Below, piece after piece: positions 9,527-56,419 of a stretch of DNA of 56,419 nt. Position numbers and translations under genes: made by a program. Numbering within the stretch: position 1 is the first letter of the stretch; the number at the start of each line of letters is the position of its first letter. The stretch comes from a virus (taxonomy: Duplodnaviria > Caudoviricetes): positions 1-56,419 of IMG/VR virus record IMGVR_UViG_3300028708_000002; one strand, given 5' to 3'. The notes beneath the pieces were generated by a model. It ran no database searches. It was not told the DNA's origin and saw only the letters and a program-made list of their open reading frames with translations.

Positions 9527-9902
9527 CGATGTTCCCTTCGCGCGGCACACCGTTGTCGATCATCTCGACAGCGAGGAGGCAGTGCCCGATGAGGTCCATC
9601 AGGATCTCGCGTTGGCCCTCTCGCGGGAGGTCAGCACCCTCCCACATCGCGCGCCGGAGCGGCCCGATCTTCCGCCAGATGTCTGCGAACTGCCCCATCG
9701 GTCCGAGCACGTGGTGGTTCCATCGTCCGTACTGCCGTGCGCCGAGGATGACGTTGTCGGCGACTTCGGCCAGGAGCTTGCTCAGGATGTACATATGCGC
9801 CGGGCCCACACTAGGGTCAGGGACCGGGCTGATTGGCGCTCCCTGTGGGCCTAGGGTGTGCTGCAGGCGCAACTCTGCAGTCACGTCGGCTGGGATGTTC
9901 AC
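9504..9902 (-). CDS. Nucleotide modification-associated domain 1 (Nmad1/DUF1599-like)
   Basis: YG...LGPMGQFADIWRK..L...E...EILMDLIGHCLL helical pattern; GAGGAGG SD plus GTG. Confidence 0.65.
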   Translation of the reverse strand: MNIPADVTAELRLQHTLGPQGAPISPVPDPSVGPAHMYILSKLLAEVADNVILGARQYGRWNHHVLGPMGQFADIWRKIGPLRRAMWEGADLPREGQREILMDLIGHCLLAVEMIDNGVPREGNIDAIGERG

Positions 9903-17362: not shown

Positions 17363-19338
17363 CAACGCAAGCTCTCCGTCAGTTCAATGACGCGACGGTT
17401 GAACTCTATACCGCGCCGCCCGTCGAGCACCTTGTGCGAGCCTCGCTCCAATTCAGTGTTAGCAAGGGCAATCGCCTCCTCGATGGTGCCGAGTGACCGC
17501 AGGTACCAGTAGAAGACGGGGCGGGGGTTGGAGACTCGGTGGATCCGGTCCTCGGCCTGCGCCTGGTCATCCGGCACCCAGGTCTCATCGAGGAACACCA
17601 TGTGGTCGGCGGAGTCGATCGTCAACGCCACACCGCCTGTCCTGGTCTGCAGAAGGAGCACCTGCGCTCCGCCGTCTGTCCGGTTGAAGTCCCCCAGGAC
17701 CTCCGACCGGTTCGTGGTGTCCCCGGTGATGATTCCCGTGGTAGCGATGGAGGAAAGCGCTTCCCTCACCAACTCCAGCATCTGGGTGTACTGCGACAAG
17801 ACCACGACCTTGCCGGTGGGGTCCTCGGGATAGCCCATCTCTGTCAGCATCTGCACCAGGTAGTCGACCTTGTTGGAAGGCATTGTCGGGATCAGGATCG
17901 TCTTCGTGACCTGGTGCTTGTGGTCCGTCCTGTCCGGGCAGGCGGAGTCCTTGCACTTCTGCCAGACCTGGCGCTGCTCCGGACGGCCAGCCGAGGAGGC
18001 GAACTGCTTGAGCCGCGTCATCTCCGCGAGCGTCCCGATGGCGCTGAGGTCACCTTCGGCCAAGATGGCAACAGAGGTCTCCTCCATCTCCCGATATGCC
18101 TTCTCCTGTGCGGGGTCCAGCGGCAGCCACACGCCGCGACCGAGCGCCACCGGGGTCTCGCTCTCCGGGCCGTCCACGAGGTTGGTCCCCATGTAGCTCT
18201 TGGGCGGGAGGTCCGGCGCGACCTCGGCTTTGGTTCGCCGCAACATGATCCGGTCCAGGTCGCTCCACAGCAGCGCCTCCCGGTCCTCCCGGAGCCCACC
18301 GAGGTTGCGCGATCCGCCGTAGCCGAAGGTCACGTTGAAGTAGGTCTCGACCCACTGCCAGTAGCCCCGGAACTCCTCAGGCCGGAGCCAGTTCAGCGTG
18401 CCCCAGAGCAGCTGCGGCTTGCTCCGCATCGGCGTACCTGAGGAGGCCACGCGCAGCCCGTCCTGGCGCGTACGGAGGAGCATCATCCCGTTGCGTACCT
18501 GGGTGGGAGTACCGCGTCGGCGGATGAGAGCGTTCTGGCTCTCATCGAGCAGGATGGCACCCCACTCGCGCTGGAATAGCTCGGGCCACTCGTGCTCGTG
18601 ACGGGTCTTGGTCCGGCGTGGGTCGTGCTCGCACACCAACTCCTTCTTGTGGCGTACAGGTGTCTCCCGCCCACACTGCCCACAGATCCACCAACTCTTG
18701 GTCGAGACCATCTGGGGGTGGACGACAACCCATGTATTATGGAGCGAGGGCTCAGCCTTGATCTCATCCCAAACGCGCTGCCGGGCCGTCCGTCCGTCTG
18801 GGAAGTTCACCACGATCCCGTCGTCCAGCCAGCGCAGTAGCTCGCGCGCCCACACGGTCTCGGTTGCGGTCTTGGTCGTCACCACGAGGTAGGGACCGGT
18901 CACCCCATCCTCGATCACGCCGCCGATGAGCTCCAGGGTCTTCCCAAGCCCCATCTCGTCTGCGATCAGGACGTTGCGGCCCTTGGCGATGAACCTCGCC
19001 GCCACACGCTGGTAGGTCCGGGCCTCCATCGCCTGCGCGAGGTCCGGCGCGACGTCAGGCACATGCTCCAGGTCCGCGTCCATCAGCTGCCCGAGGTCGC
19101 GCATGGCCTCGCTCGTGGCGCGCCGGTCACTGTACCAGGCGGCAAGCTCGCTGCCCACCTTCATCGTGTCGCCGAAGCGCTCCCGGAGCGCGACGCAGGA
19201 GGCTGCTGTGAGCGGGACCGTCCAGGCCGCGTCGCGCTTGGAGAAGTACGCGCCTGGGATCGACTCACCAAGCCGCGCCACATGATGGTCAGAGCGGATG
19301 CGGATGCGCCGCCCAGCCAGATCTGCTATCACCGTCAT
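17362..19338 (-). CDS. SNF2-family DNA helicase
   Basis: DEMGLGKT, LDESQ, SGTP, MLRRTK and QAEDRIHR motifs. Confidence 0.93.
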   Translation of the reverse strand: MTVIADLAGRRIRIRSDHHVARLGESIPGAYFSKRDAAWTVPLTAASCVALRERFGDTMKVGSELAAWYSDRRATSEAMRDLGQLMDADLEHVPDVAPDLAQAMEARTYQRVAARFIAKGRNVLIADEMGLGKTLELIGGVIEDGVTGPYLVVTTKTATETVWARELLRWLDDGIVVNFPDGRTARQRVWDEIKAEPSLHNTWVVVHPQMVSTKSWWICGQCGRETPVRHKKELVCEHDPRRTKTRHEHEWPELFQREWGAILLDESQNALIRRRGTPTQVRNGMMLLRTRQDGLRVASSGTPMRSKPQLLWGTLNWLRPEEFRGYWQWVETYFNVTFGYGGSRNLGGLREDREALLWSDLDRIMLRRTKAEVAPDLPPKSYMGTNLVDGPESETPVALGRGVWLPLDPAQEKAYREMEETSVAILAEGDLSAIGTLAEMTRLKQFASSAGRPEQRQVWQKCKDSACPDRTDHKHQVTKTILIPTMPSNKVDYLVQMLTEMGYPEDPTGKVVVLSQYTQMLELVREALSSIATTGIITGDTTNRSEVLGDFNRTDGGAQVLLLQTRTGGVALTIDSADHMVFLDETWVPDDQAQAEDRIHRVSNPRPVFYWYLRSLGTIEEAIALANTELERGSHKVLDGRRGIEFNRRVIELTESLR

Positions 19339-19369
19339 CTTCGTTCCCTTCTCTCGCCTATCACCGAGG

Positions 19370-19398
19370 AGCGTACGCCAATTGGCCTGCTAACGGAA
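19370..19398 (-). promoter_or_regulatory. Promoter TTCCGT-N17-TACGCT
   Basis: Directly after a terminator; the leader carries GGCGAGAG-AAGGGAAC. Confidence 0.6.
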
Positions 19399-19432
19399 TG
19401 ATGGCCCGCCCTCCGGAGAGAGCGGGCCATCA
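19399..19432 (-). terminator. Terminator stem-loop
   Basis: TGATGGCCCGC/GCGGGCCATCA 11-bp inverted repeat. Confidence 0.65.
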
Positions 19433-19440
19433 CGGTCCGG

Positions 19441-20148
19441 TCAGACGTTCAGCGGTACGGGGCTCTTGGGGGCCACCGTCTGAAGCTCCAGCGACTTGAT
19501 AACCATCGCCTGGATCTCCGTCTTCTTCAGGCCATCGAACGGGAGGCCCATGTCGGCTGCCTCGTAACGGAGGTCCGCGAGCCGCAGCCCGAGCACCCGG
19601 TTGCGCTCGCGGGTGAGGCGAGCCTTTTCGTTGATCGCGTCCTGCTCGACCTTGCTCCGCTTCGCGCCAACCTCGCGGGCAACCTGGACGTTCGACTCCT
19701 CGGCGAGGATCGCCTTGAAGTCCGGCTTGATGAGGCTCTTGAGGATCTCGGCACCGGCGATGAGGAGGACTACCGCGATGAACGCGAATCCCAGCACCAG
19801 CGTCGCGGAGCCGAGGAAGTTGATCGTGGCACTCACGCCCACCGGGAAGACCAGCAGGATCAGCGCCATCTTCTTGGCCGGTGCGGCCATCCCCGCCGCG
19901 CTCAGGACCTTGACGCAAAGCAGGATGAACATGTCCATCGCCAGCGGGATGATCGCCGCGCTGAACGGGTCGGCCTTGGCAGCGTGACCAAGGAAGTGGA
20001 ACTGGTGCTGGAAGCTAGCAACCATCACCAGCAGGGTGATCGCGAGGCCCAGGCGCTTCGCCCACTTGATCGCGGACAGCATCTCCTCGACGGCCTTGGA
20101 GCCGTACTGCTCGGCGAACTTCTGGCCGGGGGTCTTGGTGGAGTTCAT
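19441..20148 (-). CDS. DUF2637/SpdA-like four-TM protein with C-terminal HeH-like motif
   Basis: SFQH...A..IPLAMD...VSATIN pattern; 4 hydrophobic helices. Confidence 0.7.
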   Translation of the reverse strand: MNSTKTPGQKFAEQYGSKAVEEMLSAIKWAKRLGLAITLLVMVASFQHQFHFLGHAAKADPFSAAIIPLAMDMFILLCVKVLSAAGMAAPAKKMALILLVFPVGVSATINFLGSATLVLGFAFIAVVLLIAGAEILKSLIKPDFKAILAEESNVQVAREVGAKRSKVEQDAINEKARLTRERNRVLGLRLADLRYEAADMGLPFDGLKKTEIQAMVIKSLELQTVAPKSPVPLNV

Positions 20149-20229
20149 CTCGGTTCCCTTCGTTGGAGGAAGACTCGCCATCTTCCCTTGCAACACCAAC
20201 GCTACTCCAACTGCAACGGGATGGCTACA
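20149..20229 (-). promoter_or_regulatory. Promoter TGTAGCCA-N12-TGGAGTAGCGTTG, leader hairpin and AAGGGAACCGAG RBS
   Basis: Motif identical to 23643-23675; its -35 overlaps a 15-bp inverted repeat (20214-20249). Confidence 0.7.
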
Positions 20230-20266
20230 TTTCCGCAGCCATCCCGTTGGTAAATATGAAGATTCT

Positions 20267-21220
20267 TTACGCCTCGATGTCTACCAGCACATTCTCTGAG
20301 GATCTAGTCTGCCCGCCCGTGAACGCCTTGCCCCGTCCCACAGCCACGAGGGCGGAGAGCCGGAACGCCCGGAAGCCAGTCCCAGCCTGGCAGCAGAACA
20401 GCACCACTCGCTCGCCCAGCTGCTCGGTGACGCGGACCGTCCTGGGGTCGCCCACCTTGGCCGTCTCCGTCCCGCCGCTCAGCCGGTTGTGCCACTTCAC
20501 CACATGCCCGGCAATCGCGTCCACCACAACCCGCTCCGGCGCGGTGGCGGGGTCGAACGGGAGGCGTACCACCTTGGGCATGACCTCCGCGTCCCTGCGG
20601 CGGAACGCCTTGTTGGTGGCGACCCTCGCCAACTCCTCGGCTGCCTCGGTCGGCTTGCGCTCCGCGAGCTTCAACGCCGCGCTGACATTCCGCGTCTGCA
20701 CCGTCCGGTCGCCCACCGTGTAGGTCGCTCCAGCGTTGACATACACGCCGCTGTCCCACGCCTGGTGGATCGCCTCGATGACGTCAGCGCCGCGCGTCGC
20801 CACAACCTCGGTCAGTTCACCCTCGGTCCGGTAATGCCCGATCCACCCTAGCGCCTCGATAGCCGTGCAGAACACCCGAGCCTTGGCCTCGCTCTTGGTT
20901 TCCGGTACTGTGGCCTCTCCGTTGGAGCTAGGGGCCTTAGCGGCAGTCTTCTGCACCGGCTCAGCCGGGCGGGTACGCGGCCTGGGACGCTCAGCCTCGG
21001 TCTTGTCGTGGAGCCGCAGCGCGTCCTGGAGCGCCTGCTTGCCCATCGTCCGTGCCTCCAGGACCTCCCGGCGCACGGCCTCGGCACGAAGCTCGGTGAG
21101 CCTCCAGTCGCCGTAGACATCAGCCGTCTCCACGATCGTGTTCGGCATCCGCTGTGCGGCTCGCTCGCGCTTGGCGTCCGCGACCCGCCGGAGCCCTCCC
21201 TTGCGTACTGTGGTCGTCAT
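20267..21220 (-). CDS. Hypothetical protein with Rho-N/HeH-like motif
   Basis: WRLTELRAEA......RTMGKQALQDAL; RBS AAGGGGACTGAG. Confidence 0.75.
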   Translation of the reverse strand: MTTTVRKGGLRRVADAKRERAAQRMPNTIVETADVYGDWRLTELRAEAVRREVLEARTMGKQALQDALRLHDKTEAERPRPRTRPAEPVQKTAAKAPSSNGEATVPETKSEAKARVFCTAIEALGWIGHYRTEGELTEVVATRGADVIEAIHQAWDSGVYVNAGATYTVGDRTVQTRNVSAALKLAERKPTEAAEELARVATNKAFRRRDAEVMPKVVRLPFDPATAPERVVVDAIAGHVVKWHNRLSGGTETAKVGDPRTVRVTEQLGERVVLFCCQAGTGFRAFRLSALVAVGRGKAFTGGQTRSSENVLVDIEA

Positions 21221-21402
21221 CTCAGTCCCCTTCTCTTCTCTCGCCTGATCTTGTTCCTGCGGCGGTCGACCTTCCGCAGTACCCTCTCGGGTATTCCCTG
21301 TGCTATGAACGGCTTCTGGGTGATCCGCTCCGCCCACTTGAACCATCCCCGTTGGTACGGATCGACGTTGCCGACCGGATAGCCTCCGGCCTCACTCGGC
21401 AC
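21217..21402 (-). CDS. Small arginine-rich protein
   Basis: Overlaps both neighbours; RKVDRRRNKIRREKRR. Confidence 0.5.
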   Translation of the reverse strand: MPSEAGGYPVGNVDPYQRGWFKWAERITQKPFIAQGIPERVLRKVDRRRNKIRREKRRGLR

Positions 21403-21673
21403 GGCGGCACACCTCCAACTTCTCCTCCGGCCATCCTGGAACCGCCCACCCGCTCTCCATCTCGATGAAGTTGAGGCTGTGGGGCAGGGTCCCGCCCGTC
21501 ACCCGGCGCACAACCGCGTCGCCGCCATACCCCTGGAGCGTGTCGCCCTGCACGAGGCGACGGACCTCCACCAACCGCGTCTCGCCGGACGCAAGCCGCG
21601 CCATCCGCTCGCGCTGCTCCTTGGTAACCCGAACGGTCTTGCTTGGCCTGGTGGCTACTGCCTTGCTGACCAT
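21392..21673 (-). CDS. Hypothetical protein
   Basis: AAGGGAAC RBS; -10 TAAGCT upstream. Confidence 0.7.
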   Translation of the reverse strand: MVSKAVATRPSKTVRVTKEQRERMARLASGETRLVEVRRLVQGDTLQGYGGDAVVRRVTGGTLPHSLNFIEMESGWAVPGWPEEKLEVCRRAE

Positions 21674-21726
21674 CTTCTTGTTCCCTTCTCTGGAGTTTCG
21701 TCCCGAGCTTACTCCTGGAGGCTGCA

Positions 21727-21762
21727 GGCCGCGCGCCGGAGGACGTGTCTCGGCGCGCGGCC
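21727..21762 (-). terminator. Stem-loop
   Basis: GGCCGCGCGCCG/CGGCGCGCGGCC. Confidence 0.55.
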
Positions 21763-21772
21763 GCAACGGGCA

Positions 21773-22774
21773 CTAGCTGGTGAGCTCACCGCTGGGAGTC
21801 CGAGTGCCTGCCTCCTCCACGCGCTGGGCGCGTGAAGACCTATCAACCTCGACCTCGCTCGCAGCGTCCCGCCCGAGAGCAGCACCGGCGCGAGCCTCAG
21901 CCGAGTAGTGGTAACGCTGGTACCGCGCCTCATCGGCTTGCGTCCAGCCCTTCTTGCGGGACTTCTTGGCGGGGGTGGTCTCCTGAACCTCGATCTCGAC
22001 CGGCCGCAGCTGCGGGAAGAATCCATAGAACGCCTCCAGCACCCGCTCCTCGCGCCCGTGCAGCTGGACCGCGCCGCCGAGGCTGTCCGCGCCGTCCCGC
22101 GCCTCCCGCAGCTGGGACTGGAGACCGTTGCTGAATCCGTTGGCGAAGCCGTAGCGGAAGGTCTTGACGTTGACGCCGCGACCGGCCACCATCTCTTCGA
22201 CGCCGCGACGCTCGCACTCCGCACGGTACATCTTCGTGGCCCGCGTGGTGTGGGTGGCGTCGCGGTTGCCCCAGAGCGCGTCCGCGATCTCATAGCGGTT
22301 CCATCCTGCCGACCGGAGCCGGAACACATTCACCGCGTCGCTGAGGCTGGGGTCCGGGTTGACGTCGATCCGGTTGATGAAGACGAGACGCGCGGCGTTG
22401 AACAGGTACTCCGCATACCGCACGTCACCCTCGTAGCCGACCAGCGCGGCCTGTGCCATCCAGCCGTCGACCGGGTGGAAGTAGTTCTTGATATGGACGT
22501 TAACGCCGCAGTGATCGGCGATCCGGCGGATGAAGATGGAGTACCAGCTGGAGTACCGCGTGGTGTTGAGTCGGCAGAGGTCGATGATGGAGAGGATCGG
22601 CTCAACGGCGGTGGCGTCCTGCGCCAGCAGATGCTCCTGCTCGATCCGGTACTTGCGCATAAGCTCCTCGGCCTTGGCCCGGTAGGTCGCTGCGGCCTCA
22701 GGCGGGGTAGCGGGATCCTCGGCCACGTTCAGCAGTCCGCTGATCTTGTTGAGGATCACATCCAGGTTAGCCAT
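21773..22774 (-). CDS. DUF2786 domain protein
   Basis: ILNKISGLLNVAE...PEAATYRAKAEELMRKY N-terminus; F..GF and A.AGA..GR motifs. Confidence 0.8.
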   Translation of the reverse strand: MANLDVILNKISGLLNVAEDPATPPEAAATYRAKAEELMRKYRIEQEHLLAQDATAVEPILSIIDLCRLNTTRYSSWYSIFIRRIADHCGVNVHIKNYFHPVDGWMAQAALVGYEGDVRYAEYLFNAARLVFINRIDVNPDPSLSDAVNVFRLRSAGWNRYEIADALWGNRDATHTTRATKMYRAECERRGVEEMVAGRGVNVKTFRYGFANGFSNGLQSQLREARDGADSLGGAVQLHGREERVLEAFYGFFPQLRPVEIEVQETTPAKKSRKKGWTQADEARYQRYHYSAEARAGAALGRDAASEVEVDRSSRAQRVEEAGTRTPSGELTS

Positions 22775-22866
22775 CTCGGTTCCCTTCTAAGAGCCCTCTC
22801 GCTGGGCTAGGACTGAGCGTCCTGGGCGAGGAGCGAGGCGCTGGGCCTCGCTCCCACCCGATGGGC

Positions 22867-23598
22867 TCAGGCCAGCTTCTGCAGGATCTCGCTGACGTTC
22901 CGGACGTTCTTGCCGTTGACCTGGGTGACGATCCGGCGACCGGAGTCCGACCACACGCAGACGATACCGGCCTTGCTAAGCTCCAGCATCACGCCGCCGT
23001 CCGTCTCGGTGATCTTCGCGCCGGAGAGGCCGCGAGCCTTGAGGAGCGCCTTGACCTCGGTGGCCTTGGTCGCGCCGTAGGCCTTGATCGTGACGTTGAA
23101 CGTCATGCCGAGTCGCGGGGTGCCTACCCGGACCTTCGCGCCGCTGGCCTTGTTGAGGTTCGGCTGGCAGATCCAGCAGGACTCCATCTCCTGCTTGGTC
23201 TCCGCGATGTAAGCGTCAACCTCGGCCTGCTCGGTGAAGTGGGTGTTCTCCAGCGAGTAGGTGTCGATGTCGTCGTGGCCGTGGTCGCTGTGGGCGTTTT
23301 CCCATCCAGCCTCTTCGTAGCAAAGCTCGCAGGTCATGCCCTCGGCGGTGAGGGGGCTGGCCGGGCGGATCTCGCAGACCGCGCAACGCTTCTTGCCGGT
23401 GGCCTTGGCGGGCTTGGACTCCGGGGTGACGACTGCCTGCCGCTGGTTGTCAATCTCAACCTTCATCGCGTAGAGCTTGTCCAGGAGGTCAGCCTTGCGG
23501 CCGCTCGACATCCCCTTGACCCCAACCTGGCCAGCCAGCTTGCGAAGCTCGACGGTGGTCATGTTCTCCAGGTTAACCTGCATCAGGTCGATGTTCAT
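22867..23598 (-). CDS. Rho termination factor N-terminal (HeH) domain protein with Cys/His clusters
   Basis: ENMTTVELRKLA...GVKG.S..RKADLL; CAVC, CELC, H..H.H and CWIC. Confidence 0.75.
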   Translation of the reverse strand: MNIDLMQVNLENMTTVELRKLAGQVGVKGMSSGRKADLLDKLYAMKVEIDNQRQAVVTPESKPAKATGKKRCAVCEIRPASPLTAEGMTCELCYEEAGWENAHSDHGHDDIDTYSLENTHFTEQAEVDAYIAETKQEMESCWICQPNLNKASGAKVRVGTPRLGMTFNVTIKAYGATKATEVKALLKARGLSGAKITETDGGVMLELSKAGIVCVWSDSGRRIVTQVNGKNVRNVSEILQKLA

Positions 23599-23675
23599 TT
23601 CAGTTCCCTTCGTTTCGGGGCTCTCGCCGCCCCTTTCAAGGACAACGCTACTCCATCTTATTGCAATTGGCTACA
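23599..23675 (-). promoter_or_regulatory. Promoter TGTAGCCA-N12-TGGAGTAGCGTTG, GGCGAGA hairpin and AAGGGAACTGAA RBS
   Basis: Repeat of the 20149-20229 architecture. Confidence 0.7.
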
Positions 23676-23676
23676 A

Positions 23677-24198
23677 TTACACTCTACCTGCGCAAACAGG
23701 TCCAATGCCGGCCTCGATCGAAATCTCATCGGTGAGCGTCCGGCCGCACACGCAGCAGACGCCATAGAGCTTCCCGAACTGCTGCGCCTCCTCCAGCGTC
23801 ATCCGGTCCTCCGGGCGGAGCTTGAGGATGCCGCCTGGGACGTACTCAAAGTGCCACTCTCCTCTGGGCTCATCGGTCAGGACCTTGGCGTAAAGCCTGC
23901 GGCCGTCGCCACCGGCGCGGTTCCACTGGACCTTCCAGATCTCCCCGGTCGTGCCCTCGTTGTGCGGGTCCTCGATGATGGCCCGGTACATGCCATCCTG
24001 CGTCACCAGCGCCCGGTCAAATCGGAGATCCGTCCCGCTGGATGGGGGAGACGTCCGGATGATCTCAGAGCCATAATCCGTGCGCATCCAATCCGGCTCG
24101 CTCGGACGGGTAGGGGGCCGGTGGGACTCGAAAGCCTGGCACTCGCGCACCTGCGCCACAGTCTCGTGGCGTCCCTCGCAATGTCCGCACTTGATCAT
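23677..24198 (-). CDS. DUF6011-like zinc-binding protein
   Basis: C-terminal CCVCGRTLTD..SI.AGIGPVC; N-terminal CGHC...H......REC. Confidence 0.75.
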   Translation of the reverse strand: MIKCGHCEGRHETVAQVRECQAFESHRPPTRPSEPDWMRTDYGSEIIRTSPPSSGTDLRFDRALVTQDGMYRAIIEDPHNEGTTGEIWKVQWNRAGGDGRRLYAKVLTDEPRGEWHFEYVPGGILKLRPEDRMTLEEAQQFGKLYGVCCVCGRTLTDEISIEAGIGPVCAGRV

Positions 24199-24359
24199 CT
24201 CACGCCTCCCCGGATTTCGTACTTGGCTAGGCAGCGATCGCAATCGCACTCCACGACGCTCCCGTTAGCGTTAAGCGCGTTACCCTGCGCATCCATCCAC
24301 GGATAGGTCTTCTCTTCGGTCTCCGGGTTGGTTTCCGGCCGAGTCTCTTCGTGCTCCAT
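24195..24359 (-). CDS. Small protein (54 aa, CDCDRC; not in ORF track)
   Basis: AAGGGAATCAAG RBS; ATGA coupling. Confidence 0.65.
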   Translation of the reverse strand: MEHEETRPETNPETEEKTYPWMDAQGNALNANGSVVECDCDRCLAKYEIRGGVR

Positions 24360-24420
24360 CTTGATTCCCTTCTACGGGGAGGTCTCTCGCTCCTCCCTTT
24401 ACGACGCCAATCCTACTCCA
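24360..24420 (-). promoter_or_regulatory. Promoter (TGGAG-TAGGAT), GCGAGA hairpin and RBS
   Basis: Same leader architecture; hairpin at 24377-24397. Confidence 0.65.
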
Positions 24421-24481
24421 AGTTTTGACGGGAGGAAAGTCGAGAGCGTTGGATCTACCAGGGGTAACGAAGATTCTTTTG

Positions 24482-24524
24482 CAAAGAGAAGGGGACCGGT
24501 CGGGGCGAGAGTCCGACCGGTCCC
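24482..24524 (-). terminator. Intrinsic terminator at the end of the late operon/sRNA
   Basis: 12-bp stem GGGACCGGTCGG/CCGACCGGTCCC followed by CTTCTCTTT. Confidence 0.8.
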
Positions 24525-24606
24525 AGAGGAGTCCGCACGTCACGCGAGGAAGGGAACCGCAATCTCAAACGAGACGCTAAGCGTTGTCCTCCACCATCTT
24601 CTCCTG
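24482..24606 (-). ncRNA. Candidate trans-acting antisense small RNA
   Basis: Promoter TAGCCG-N18-TACTCT (24642-24613); terminator 24492-24524 with pyrimidine tail; CGGUUCCCUUC and loop CUCUCGCC complement the repeated leaders. Confidence 0.55.
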
Positions 24607-24639
24607 GTTACAAGAGTACGCCGTGCCAGAAAGTTGCGG

Positions 24640-24993
24640 CTAGCGCCTGGCGTAGGCCGGGCGTTTGTCGTTGACCAAGATGTCCTGCGCCGTGTCGGTC
24701 GCGCCGGTGGGCCTCCAGAGCCCGAAATGGACCGCCACTGCGAGGACGAAGTTCACGACCACGTTGTACGCCACCACCGTCCACACGAACGGAGCCCCGG
24801 CCTGGAGCGCCGCGACCCACGCCTGCAGGAACGTCGAGATGGCAGCGAAGAGCAGTAGCAGCACCGCTTTCATGGCCGCTGGCTGGGATCTTTTCGTGAT
24901 CAGCGACACCGCAAGTGGTAGCAGGACCGTGATCACGAGCGACAGGAGCCCGCCCAGGTCCGGCTGGAAGACATAGAACTCAGGTGCGTTCAT
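24640..24993 (-). CDS. Holin
   Basis: Three hydrophobic helices, directly after the endolysin. Confidence 0.8.
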   Translation of the reverse strand: MNAPEFYVFQPDLGGLLSLVITVLLPLAVSLITKRSQPAAMKAVLLLLFAAISTFLQAWVAALQAGAPFVWTVVAYNVVVNFVLAVAVHFGLWRPTGATDTAQDILVNDKRPAYARR

Positions 24994-44656: not shown

Positions 44657-46194
44657 TACTTCCTCCTACTCGTGACATTCGTGCGGTTGCTCTGCGCGGG
44701 CACGCGGAACGGGTTACCGAACAGTCCTGAGAGGAGCCGTCCCAGTGCCTCAGGGCAGTGGTTGTCCTTGGACATCGGCTCCTCAGGCGCTGCCCGCCCC
44801 CGGTCGCCTGCCTTCTGCGAGTCCGGATAGCGCCATTCGTTGAACTCGCGGATCGTGTTGACGCACTTGCGGCTGATGGTGAGGCCAGGCTTGCGCTCAG
44901 GGTGGCCCAAGTCTAGGTGCTCCGGGGTCATCTTGAGGAATCGGCGCATCCACTCGATCCGCCCCTGCAGCAGGATCGACCCCCCACGGTAGGCCGGAAC
45001 CTGGAGCGCCTCCGAGATGGCGCGCGTACGGTCCGGCTCCGCTGGGTCCGGATAGAACATCCGCGTCTGGGCGGGACACAGGCCGCGCGAGCGGATGTCC
45101 TTGATGGCCTCCTCGGTCGTCACGCCGGTCTTGTAATACTCATCCAGGATGTGAATGCGCTTGCGGTCCGGCGAGACCTGTACCAGCAGCCAGGCGAACG
45201 GGTTGGTGAAGCCGTAGTCCACCGCCGCGTAGGTCGCCCACGCAGAGTTGAAGTCGTGGTCGGTGACGTGTAGCTCTTCATCGAAGTCCTTGAGCACGCG
45301 CCCAACGAACTCTGTGAACTGCGCGGCCTCCTCCTGGTTGAACATCTCCATGCTCATGTCGAGGAACAGCGCCCAGATCTCTGGGTGGATACCGGTCGGT
45401 GCGGCCGCGCCGTGCGTCGCGCTGAAGAGCATCTTGAGCGTCGGTATCAGCCGGTCCATCCGGCCGTACCGGCGCGCCTCCGTCAGCCGCGACAGCAACT
45501 CCTCATCGACTCCTCCGGGGAACAGGTGCGGGTTCACCCAGGCTGGGGCGCGCCAACTCTGCCAGTCGGTCCGCTGTGGGTCCAGTCCGGCCATGTACAG
45601 GTCATAGAACCAGTTCTTGCCCTCGGGGGTGGAGAGGAATGCCGTCCAGCCGGTAAAGTCCGCTAGCGTTGGACGTAGGTACTTGATCCACACACTCGGC
45701 TTGAGCTTGGCGGCCTCGGAGAAGATAGCTCCACTCAGGCCCTCGCCAACCAGCGTCCCCGGATACTTCGCGCTCTTGGCATGCACGATGAATCGCCGGT
45801 CGAACAGGCTGGCAACCATCTCGCCGGACTCTGGGTTGTAGTAGCTCCCAGGATGGTCGAGCCGCATCCCGATCCGGGTGATGGAGTCCCAGAAGACACG
45901 GAACTCCTTCTCAGAGTCGCTGTACTCAGGCCCGACAATCCAGTACTCCCGGCGCTTCCCTTCGCGCTTGAGATCATCCAGCTCATACCATGCGCGATAC
46001 GCCTCCGGCACCAGTAAATGCCCACCAGTCTGGCTCTTGCCAGCGCGCCGCCCGAACGCCACGACCTTGTTGCGCGCTCGGCTCGTGATGACCTCGCGCT
46101 GGAGCGGGTACGGCTGCCAGTTCGTACGATCCCATGTCATCTTGTGGATCTGCAACGGGATCGGTGGCGTCCGCCACATAGTCGGTGTCGTCAT
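44656..46194 (-). CDS. terL: Terminase large subunit
   Basis: GRRAGKS, SEAA, STPEG, VDYGFTNP and DPA motifs. Confidence 0.92.
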   Translation of the reverse strand: MTTPTMWRTPPIPLQIHKMTWDRTNWQPYPLQREVITSRARNKVVAFGRRAGKSQTGGHLLVPEAYRAWYELDDLKREGKRREYWIVGPEYSDSEKEFRVFWDSITRIGMRLDHPGSYYNPESGEMVASLFDRRFIVHAKSAKYPGTLVGEGLSGAIFSEAAKLKPSVWIKYLRPTLADFTGWTAFLSTPEGKNWFYDLYMAGLDPQRTDWQSWRAPAWVNPHLFPGGVDEELLSRLTEARRYGRMDRLIPTLKMLFSATHGAAAPTGIHPEIWALFLDMSMEMFNQEEAAQFTEFVGRVLKDFDEELHVTDHDFNSAWATYAAVDYGFTNPFAWLLVQVSPDRKRIHILDEYYKTGVTTEEAIKDIRSRGLCPAQTRMFYPDPAEPDRTRAISEALQVPAYRGGSILLQGRIEWMRRFLKMTPEHLDLGHPERKPGLTISRKCVNTIREFNEWRYPDSQKAGDRGRAAPEEPMSKDNHCPEALGRLLSGLFGNPFRVPAQSNRTNVTSRRK

Positions 46195-56050: not shown

Positions 56051-56419
56051 CTACGTTACCCGATGCGCGCCGAGGATCTCTTTGGCTCGACGGAGCCAGG
56101 TTAGGTTGTGCTTCAAGGCATCCCGCGCATGCGGCTGTCCGGTCAGGGAGGCGTAGTAACCCCACGCCCGGAGCCGGTCGTCAGTGATAGCCATAGCTAG
56201 CGCGGGCATCTGCTTGATGACGGGGCGGACAGGACCACCCTTGTACTTGCGGGAGATCCGTCGCATCTCATACTCAAACGCCGAGGTCACCTTGACCGGC
56301 GAGAGGTCGACTGCCATCTGGCGGAGGTAGAAGTCCTCGCAGACGACCTTGGCTGAGGGCCAGGACAGCACAAGCTCGATCATCTGGTCCACCTGGCTCT
56401 CCCAGGGACCCACGAACTC
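56051..56419 (-). CDS. RuvC-like resolvase, C-terminal part
   Basis: VVCEDF, TDDRL..WG and HARDA; in frame with 1-276 across the junction. Confidence 0.75.
   Translation of the reverse strand, partial: EFVGPWESQVDQMIELVLSWPSAKVVCEDFYLRQMAVDLSPVKVTSAFEYEMRRISRKYKGGPVRPVIKQMPALAMAITDDRLRAWGYYASLTGQPHARDALKHNLTWLRRAKEILGAHRVT
56282..56419. repeat. Terminal direct repeat, right copy
   Basis: Matches 1-138. Confidence 0.95.

Follow-up and report, generated by a model that had tools for sequence, protein, structure and literature searches.

Leader cassettes of the start-associated type with a covarying hairpin in a probable actinobacteriophage genome, and a candidate two-loop antisense RNA encoded beside them

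Start-associated sequences (SAS) were first described in 2011, and their role is still called unknown in the passages that papers from 2024 and 2025 devote to them. For Cluster K mycobacteriophages, the sections on these elements describe a word of 13 nucleotides (nt) that lies 3-7 bp before mostly ATG starts, in one orientation, and heads non-structural genes that follow gaps; it is conserved beyond what pairing to the 16S rRNA needs, and these sections do not decide between an RNA and a protein as its reader (PMC3203893). A later paper, in the part that deals with the extended elements (ESAS) of this cluster, interprets them as SigA-like promoters that include an inverted repeat (PMC11373665). 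An analogous word, together with an upstream element centred on GTAGAG, is reported in the corresponding text on the Cluster EF Microbacterium phages AnnaSerena and Krampus (PMC7302621). Here, we analyzed the IMG/VR virus record IMGVR_UViG_3300028708_000002 (Duplodnaviria; Caudoviricetes), whose entire length of 56,419 bases (G+C content 63.9%) is called the window in the following, and describe a set of leader cassettes that is a new variant of the SAS/ESAS systems. The gap next to the first cassette holds a candidate unit for a small RNA with complements to both fixed elements of the leaders. For the complete reading, SAS-like leaders together with a trans-acting antisense RNA that masks them, we estimate a probability of about 0.4.

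A promoter, a hairpin, a fixed Shine-Dalgarno (SD)-like word and an ATG very probably form, in this order, a repeated cassette in front of the first early genes behind the lysis genes. The -35 element (TAGCCA or TTTCCT) is followed after 17 nt by GG(A/C)GTAnnnT, and 7-12 nt further begins a hairpin of 5-7 bp, whose stem varies and whose loop keeps (N)GCGAGA. The SD word GAAGGGAAC lies 4-6 nt downstream of the hairpin and about 4-6 nt before the ATG. The original prediction, made from the letters of the window, had placed four such hairpins on the minus strand, each followed by GAAGGGAA(C/T), 4 nt and ATG, and had noted unstemmed copies of GGCGAGAG with a ribosome-binding site before the starts at 21220 and 19338. 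All of these were found in place (Table 1), the one at 21220 with the variant SD GAAGGGGAC. The idea of a repeated leader cassette was also upheld by comparison with G001, a complete and syntenic genome of 56,391 bases with terminal repeats, which is 64-88% identical over the aligned pieces. Orthologous leaders of the two genomes share a -35-like hexamer (TTTCCT or GTAGCCA/GTAGTCA), the 17-nt spacer and TANNNT, the rest being diverged. In the window, hairpins 1, 2 and 4 begin 11-12 nt after GGAGTAG(G/C)(A/G)T; for cassette 3, no promoter motif of this class was found upstream, where a terminator-like hairpin precedes it.

In the window, GAAGGGAA has 12 matches vs. 1.27 expected, a number that none of 100 shuffles reached. 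Eleven of the 12 copies lie on the gene strand and 10 of these 11 sit 5-7 nt before an ATG; the start behind the copy at 9539 is only probable, and the copy at 45963 is located inside a gene. Nine of the start-linked copies belong to the early/replication part and one (49482) is found upstream of the structural genes. GGAGTAG(C/G)(G/A)TTG occurs three times (0.63 expected). GCGAGAG alone is not enriched (22 copies vs. 20.9 expected), with 5 of its 13 minus-strand copies at most 25 nt upstream of an SD motif. The looser pattern G(G/A)NGTANNNT was rejected, being not enriched and having fewer matches than its backwards control. GAAGGGA presumably forms seven pairs, one of them G-U, with the 3' end of actinobacterial 16S rRNA, and the following AC would be unable to pair. 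Across the window and G001, 15 of 18 start-linked copies retain AAC. Duplex energies of the SD words against this 16S tail range from -9.3 to -10.1 kcal/mol, which falls, with crude start calls, into the lower part of the range of the other genes. The same crude calls agree with the earlier observation that the structural genes mostly use GGAGG-type SDs.

The original prediction had read stems that differ but still pair around a conserved loop as an RNA element, and had proposed a covariance-model search of related phages. When a model built from five cassette copies was searched with filters off, the window and G001 each yielded exactly four full cassettes. Three copies outside the training set are recovered with 29-35 bits (E-values 1e-9 to 3e-12), among them cassette 1 with 35.3 bits and cassette 4 with 29 bits. 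The best hit in 1.05 Mb of 80 unrelated phage loci has an E-value of 0.072; these loci stem from a scan by helicase alignment (at most 31% identity) and were reused as a negative control only. The G001 stems (GGGG/CCCC, GGGGAGG/CCTCCCC, GGCCC/GGGCC and GGAGG/CCTCC) differ from those of the window, and the loops (CGCGAGA, TGCGAGA, TGCGAGA and TAGCGAGA) are followed by the same SD word. A relative with 95-99% identity in the RNA run X4 contributes a third version of the cassette 4 stem, GGACCGG/CCGATCC with one mismatch, around the loop TAGCGAG. When the 12 hits, which make up 10 distinct rows, are aligned, every one of the 50 stem cells is paired and both sides vary in four of the five pairs. 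The covariation score was not attained in any of 500 shuffles, and pairing is lost once the partner is shifted. Since this alignment is fitted to the model and made up of paralogous copies, the figures overstate independence; the pattern is nonetheless plain in the raw sequences. Because the stem covaries while the loop is fixed, the hairpin, at least this part of the cassette, acts as an RNA, as judged from comparing the sequences. Single-sequence folding of the four hairpin leaders is unremarkable (z = 0.14, -1.94, 0.10 and -0.88), and the case for a structure therefore rests on the comparison and not on energy. GCGAG is predicted to be unpaired with a probability of at least 0.8 in six of nine leaders, and a search of Rfam at E-values up to 1 gave nothing relevant.

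RNA hairpins bound by a protein are classically recognised by a stem that varies around a fixed asymmetric loop. A phage or host protein could read the loop at a translational operator about 5 nt before the SD, or at a nut-like site, where the loaded antiterminator would let transcription cross the terminators between the early genes. Terminator-like hairpins do separate these genes, and small early proteins of unknown function, one of them with a Rho_N/SAP domain, adjoin the cassettes. We nevertheless regard a protein reader as unlikely: unstemmed copies retain GGCGAGAG without the stem, no known RNA-binding family was found among the 10 neighbouring proteins scanned, and complements to loop and SD word in one neighbouring unit of both genomes would be left unexplained. 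A search of the same 10 proteins for an N-like antiterminator returned no Pfam or PHROG family, with the limit that short arginine-rich peptides can escape profile searches.

Lambda boxB has a 5-bp stem and a 5-nt GNRA-like loop. Like the lambda nut sites, the cassettes place a short hairpin with a conserved, purine-rich loop shortly behind early promoters and have terminators further downstream. In contrast to nut, loop lengths are 7, 7, 7 and 9 nt for the window and 7-8 nt for G001, the hairpin stands directly before the SD of each gene and no boxA-like element was identified. The resemblance of the copy at 22792 to boxB, which had been suggested initially, is therefore superficial.

It is very improbable that the element works at the DNA level, as an operator or cruciform for a regulator that reads GAAGGGAAC either way or as a linker for module exchange. 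One copy of the SD word has the opposite orientation, Pope et al. preferred DNA-binding proteins for the Cluster K ESAS repeats in the relevant part of their paper (PMC3203893), and AAAGAATCTTC keeps a fixed distance from two promoters. The SD motif is, however, tied to the gene strand and to a distance of 4-6 nt from the ATG, the loop is asymmetric, and the stem arms covary, which is the opposite of conserved operator half-sites. As had been claimed, AAAGAATCTTC precedes two of the cassettes with exact copies; one further copy has one mismatch, compared to 0.24 expected. The exact copies begin 64 nt before the -10 elements of cassettes 1 and 4 and could be the site for a DNA-binding regulator. 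They directly follow the preceding terminator or stop and were not seen at the orthologous places in G001.

As in the described SAS systems, many copies of one asymmetric word stand at the position of the ribosome-binding site before the start codon, in one orientation and before ATG starts of mostly non-structural genes, and a promoter-bearing element lies upstream (-35, 17 nt and TANNNT, kept in orthologs). The word itself, GAAGGGAAC, matches neither the published consensus of Cluster K (GGGATAGGAGCCC) nor that of Cluster EF (GGGAAAGGACCCC), which makes the cassettes a new variant and not a member of the same family by sequence. AnnaSerena of Cluster EF resembles the window in having a 56.7-kb genome with genes on one strand, early genes behind the lysis genes and a capsid protein with 42% identity. 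Its leaders run from GTAGCG over ~16 nt to GGAGTAnnnT, a hairpin in four of the nine copies shown, SAS and ATG, so that the promoter type (GTAGC at -35, GGAGTAnnnT at -10) is common to both; apart from the SAS word, it differs in that its hairpin loops are unrelated to each other. Cluster K likewise has an asymmetric word, 3-9 nt before the starts, and an ESAS that holds the promoter. According to the sections describing them, its ESAS repeats are conserved without covariation and thought to be DNA sites, in contrast to the covarying stems of the window.

The unrelated loops of AnnaSerena would fit a passive leader, in which a 5'-proximal hairpin guards the transcript against 5'-end-dependent decay and provides insulation for a strong SD, the cassettes are alike as copies spread by recombination, and the complementary unit is coincidence. 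In line with this idea, the hairpins start 7-12 nt after the -10 element and thus within a few nt of the predicted 5' end, and two large actinophage contigs (L033, L040) combine a consensus promoter, a 5' hairpin and GAGAAGGGAAC. Moreover, the cassettes mark mosaic joints. In the L009 contig, which is 96-98% identical to the window at the nucleotide level, cassette 1 is kept and another gene follows directly behind the ATG (window 24354-23829 vs. L009 7976-8932); the DUF6011 gene is diverged in this contig and the joint lies at the SD/ATG of cassette 1. In G001, the cassette-headed genes occur in a different order. We still consider a purely passive role rather improbable, since six loop and nine SD letters stay fixed across genomes that have fully diverged stems and 65-75% nucleotide identity, the last two SD letters, AC, are kept although pairing with the 16S tail does not need them, cassette 3 lacks a promoter of its own, and the complements of both motifs are the longest conserved blocks of an otherwise diverged spacer.

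This spacer is the 160-nt gap from the holin stop to cassette 1, where the SD word has its sole opposite-strand copy (24549-24557). The gene strand of this gap carries the candidate RNA unit listed in Table 1. The -35-like TAGCCG of the unit overlaps the holin stop, and its promoter has the pattern of cassettes 2 and 4: TAG(C/T)C(A/G)-N16-18-TANNNT matches only at these three places on the gene strand of the window and nowhere on the other strand (100 shuffles: mean 0.3, maximum 2). GTTCCCTTC has a single exact match on the gene strand of the window (24557-24549), ~37 nt upstream of the terminator loop, which holds CTCTCGC. In the predicted RNA, the loop with GGUUCCCUUCC complements the SD motif and CUCUCGC complements the hairpin loop, with GUUCCCUUC as the counterpart of the leader word GAAGGGAAC. 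With the SD word, 9-11 nt are complementary, and with the hairpin loop 6-8 nt; as the loop precedes the SD in the leaders, the two motifs follow each other as antiparallel pairing would require. By our own rough arithmetic, both complements within 60 nt in this order would arise by chance about 2 times in 1000 per genome.

The layout and order of the unit are kept in G001, although BLAST aligned nothing across the gap: TAGCCG, a 17-nt spacer and TACGAT are followed by GTTCCCTTCCCCTCC and a 12-bp terminator with the 9-nt loop ATCTCGCAA. In a MAFFT alignment of both units, the anti-SD block is the longest run of identity, and the anti-loop ranks among the conserved blocks. In the fold predicted for either genome, hairpin 1 carries the anti-SD in its apical loop and the terminator hairpin carries the anti-loop in its own, with minimum free energies of -57.3 kcal/mol (window, z -2.87) and -60.4 kcal/mol (G001, z -2.00). 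The predicted probability of being unpaired is 0.61-0.76 for the anti-SD and 0.97-0.98 for the anti-loop, compared with a mean of 0.34-0.35 over the whole RNA; in the window, the values are 0.76, 0.98 and 0.35. A mini-ORF (open reading frame) of six codons, MVEDNA, lies behind AGGAG at 24597-24577 (minus strand) and has no counterpart in G001, and for this reason the unit is read as non-coding; no ORF is conserved between the two units. A pattern scan with the blocks of this small RNA (sRNA) returned nothing beyond the two relatives already known.

In phages and Gram-positive bacteria, some antisense RNAs that act in trans, such as the c4 RNA of P1/P7 and the UCCC-loop sRNAs, cover the SD from a C/U-rich loop. 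The candidate resembles them as a predicted short structured RNA with its own terminator, pyrimidine-rich loops against the SD region, two patches and several putative targets. It differs in that these targets are a family of near-identical leaders and one of its patches would kiss a 5' hairpin. Loop and SD word may be kept because one trans-acting factor reads both, and the best candidate for this factor would be the ~125-nt RNA from the gap. It would dock on the leaders by a loop-loop kiss and then cover the SD; on every early mRNA with the cassette, ribosomes would be kept from binding or the leader would be marked for cleavage. The RNA may also be made as the 3' end of the late/lysis transcript, and late in infection, transcription continuing from the late/lysis operon into the unit would reinforce the shut-off. 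The unstemmed copies, which keep the 8-nt GGCGAGAG, suit recognition by sequence rather than by shape. The edges of the loops provide a suggestive match in the two genomes: the window RNA reads ...GCC and G stands before GCGAG in four of six targets, while the G001 RNA reads ...GCAA and U stands before GCGAG in two of five targets, numbers that are too few for a test.

Several points weigh against this antisense reading. Only two independent genomes are known to carry the system, the third, the L009 contig, being 96-98% identical to the window. A scan of duplex energies is unspecific: the cassettes reach z values of about -3.2 to -3.4, and several coding sites are equal or better. The leaders G1 and G4 match the G001 loop by 6 nt only, and W4 likewise by 6 nt. 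In an alifold prediction on the MAFFT alignment, the anti-SD pairs with an upstream conserved GGUGGAGGA block, so that it may be partly closed; alifold on the two units was uninformative, as MAFFT misaligned the terminators. Contigs from the RNA runs X1-X3 give no cover of 24442-24658, which says nothing either way, and a contig of run X4 (24531-24899) connects the unit with the holin gene and may derive from DNA or from a 3' untranslated region. In AnnaSerena, 10 forward and no reverse SAS copies were found at up to two mismatches, and Pixie and Unicorn, which like ZoeJ and Kratio belong to Cluster K subclusters other than K1, are without a reverse copy of the 9-mer GGATAGGAG. The only reverse 9-mer copy of ZoeJ is the ordinary SAS of a leftward gene, and that of Kratio lies inside a gene. 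The results from AnnaSerena and these other Cluster K phages indicate that an antisense partner is no general trait of SAS systems.

The K1 phages Adephagia and Anaya have 16 forward and one reverse SAS each. In Adephagia, the reverse copy is placed in the 432-bp gap between genes 92 and 93 (L149 955-1020, corresponding to Adephagia 58654-58719), in the 10-nt apical loop CCUCCUAUCC of a stable hairpin (z -6.1; z -9.1 for a 116-nt stretch that includes an upstream hairpin). Late transcription appears to start in this gap, according to the passage on it in PMC11373665. The reverse SAS is a possible anti-SAS RNA of Cluster K1. That the two-loop RNA of the window is a shut-off switch for early leaders, acting by kissing and SD masking, and that the K1 reverse SAS is the same device, is a tentative proposal that we think somewhat doubtful. 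In the literature searched, no antisense reader of SAS was found described; the supplements, which may list reverse SAS sites, were outside this search.

Table 1. Features of the leader region and neighbouring genes in the window (SD, Shine-Dalgarno; aa, amino acids).
Feature	Position	Strand	Details
Structural genes	~46200 to 27300	minus	
GH25 endolysin	25943-24996	minus	
Holin	24993-24640	minus	
Candidate anti-leader RNA unit	24481..24642	minus	~125-nt RNA; -35-like TAGCCG 24642-24637; 18-nt spacer; -10-like TACTCT 24618-24613
Anti-SD block of candidate unit	24558-24548	minus	GGTTCCCTTCC
Terminator of candidate unit	24524-24492	minus	GGGACCGGTCGG / loop ACTCTCGCC / CCGACCGGTCCC; 12 bp, 9-nt loop; T-rich tail to 24481
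Cassette 1 (54-aa gene)	24357..24479	minus	AAAGAATCTTC 24479-24469; -35 TTTCCT 24438-24433; -10 TAGGAT 24415-24410
Cassette 1 hairpin	24397-24377	minus	GGGAGG-AGCGAGAGA-CCTCCC; SD GAAGGGAAT 24372-24364; ATG 24359
Cassette 2 (gene of Rho_N/SAP-domain protein)	23596..23673	minus	-35 TAGCCA 23673-23668; -10 TAGCGT 23650-23645
Cassette 2 hairpin	23633-23617	minus	GGGGC-GGCGAGA-GCCCC; SD 23611-23603; ATG 23598
Cassette 3 (gene of DUF2786 protein)	22772..22811	minus	hairpin 22808-22792 AGCCC-AGCGAGA-GGGCT; SD 22787-22779; ATG 22774
Leader without GCGAGA hairpin	21671..21715	minus	GGAGTAAGCT; -10 TAAGCT 21711-21706; SD GAAGGGAAC 21688-21680; ATG 21673
21220 leader	21218..21245	minus	unstemmed GGCGAGAG 21245-21238; variant SD GAAGGGGAC 21233-21225; ATG 21220
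Cassette 4 (gene of 235-aa membrane protein)	20146..20268	minus	AAAGAATCTTC 20268-20258; -35 TAGCCA 20227-20222; -10 TAGCGT 20204-20199
Cassette 4 hairpin	20187/6-20168/7	minus	GG(G)AAGA-TGGCGAG-TCTTCC; SD 20161-20153; ATG 20148
SNF2 helicase leader	19336..19379	minus	GGCGTACGCT; -10 TACGCT 19375-19370; unstemmed GGCGAGAG 19358-19351; ATG 19338

Beside the four full cassettes, the covariance model scores three simpler leaders. The one at 21673 has a promoter and the SD word without a GCGAGA hairpin (13.4 bits). The 21220 leader is located inside the end of the upstream ORF (18.7 bits), and its G001 ortholog retains GGCGAG and GAAGGGGAC. In the helicase leader, GGCGAGAG runs straight into the SD GAAGGGAAC at 19351-19343 (22.1 bits). 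A weaker cassette-like leader upstream of the structural genes (49521-49467, minus strand) has a 6-bp stem, a 20-nt loop containing GCGCGAGG, then GGAAGGGAA and the ATG of a 100-aa ORF. The design is similar in two large GC-rich viral contigs, where promoters of the type TTGACA-N17-TATAGT (L040 464 and 2608; L033 35 and 1152) precede a hairpin with GCGAG in the 5' arm, i.e., in the stem and not in the loop, an SD GAGAAGGGAAC or similar and an ATG.

Transcription starts were predicted from the -10 hexamers only; a scan for promoters of the E. coli consensus type gave no sites, a null result that is expected for promoters like these. RNA-library contigs from soil samples hold the leader region at 99% identity. 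A contig of run X1 (19435-20179) begins in the loop of hairpin 4, spans exactly the membrane-protein gene and stops at its terminator; its depth is 27, compared to 2-7 for its neighbours. This would fit a strong monocistronic transcript, contig depth being a poor measure. Another contig ends at 24389, inside the loop of hairpin 1. The ends at 20179 and 24389 lie 13-14 nt downstream of predicted starts and are at most a weak hint for the leader promoters, as contigs cannot show ends, strand or level.

The window probably comprises the whole genome of an uncultured actinobacterial phage, whose genes all lie on the minus strand. All ORFs backed by third-position GC lie on this strand, and positions 1-138 recur at 56282-56419 (136 of 138 identical), a terminal repeat which indicates that the record is probably complete; it is classed as linear and 86% complete despite the repeated ends. 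The loop word of the cassettes also occurs within the terminal repeat, in the plus-strand hairpin TTGACC-GGCGAGA-GGTCGA. The non-structural region 3' of the holin gene begins, on the minus strand, with genes for a 54-aa protein, a DUF6011 protein, a Rho_N/SAP-domain protein and a DUF2786 protein, which are followed by two proteins of unknown function, the membrane protein and the SNF2 helicase. Judged by the capsid protein, the closest cultured phages are actinophages of Arthrobacter, Gordonia, Mycobacterium and Microbacterium, with 37-45% identity among the matches listed, and all 161 records with capsid matches are below 60%. The helicases of cultured phages are less than 40% identical to that of the window, and neither megablast of the region against GenBank phages nor tblastn with the membrane protein gave a match.

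The L009 contig and G001 were the only relatives bearing cassettes that we found. An exact-pattern scan of IMG/VR (loop, SD and ATG) returned 37 stretches, which is about the number expected by chance, and only these two are real relatives. L013 and L018 have a single cassette-like site near the contig end and no further copies and were rejected. An alignment scan with the membrane protein revealed no new viral relative; among metagenome contigs, its one match looks like the source of G001, and among species genomes, it found a 50% identical homolog without cassettes on contig L160 of a Micromonosporaceae metagenome-assembled genome, which hints at the host group of the wider lineage. In L160 (9857-9889 and 9970-9990), the homolog has the SD AGGAGGGGAAC without a GCGAGA hairpin, and the terminator before it has the loop TCTCGTA. 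Alignment of the Rho_N protein added two more distant contigs, both without cassettes.

New here is the neighbouring unit with complements of both fixed leader elements, which we put forward, from its sequence, as a candidate reader of SAS. Together, the covarying hairpin and the complementary unit make the SAS question testable. Should the reverse SAS of Cluster K1 be the same device, this would supply the missing reader of the SAS motifs. If the antisense reading is true, one small RNA would time the translation of a whole class of phage genes in a compact way. The system would also provide portable parts for actinobacteria: a promoter, a stabilising hairpin, an SD and a matching antisense RNA.

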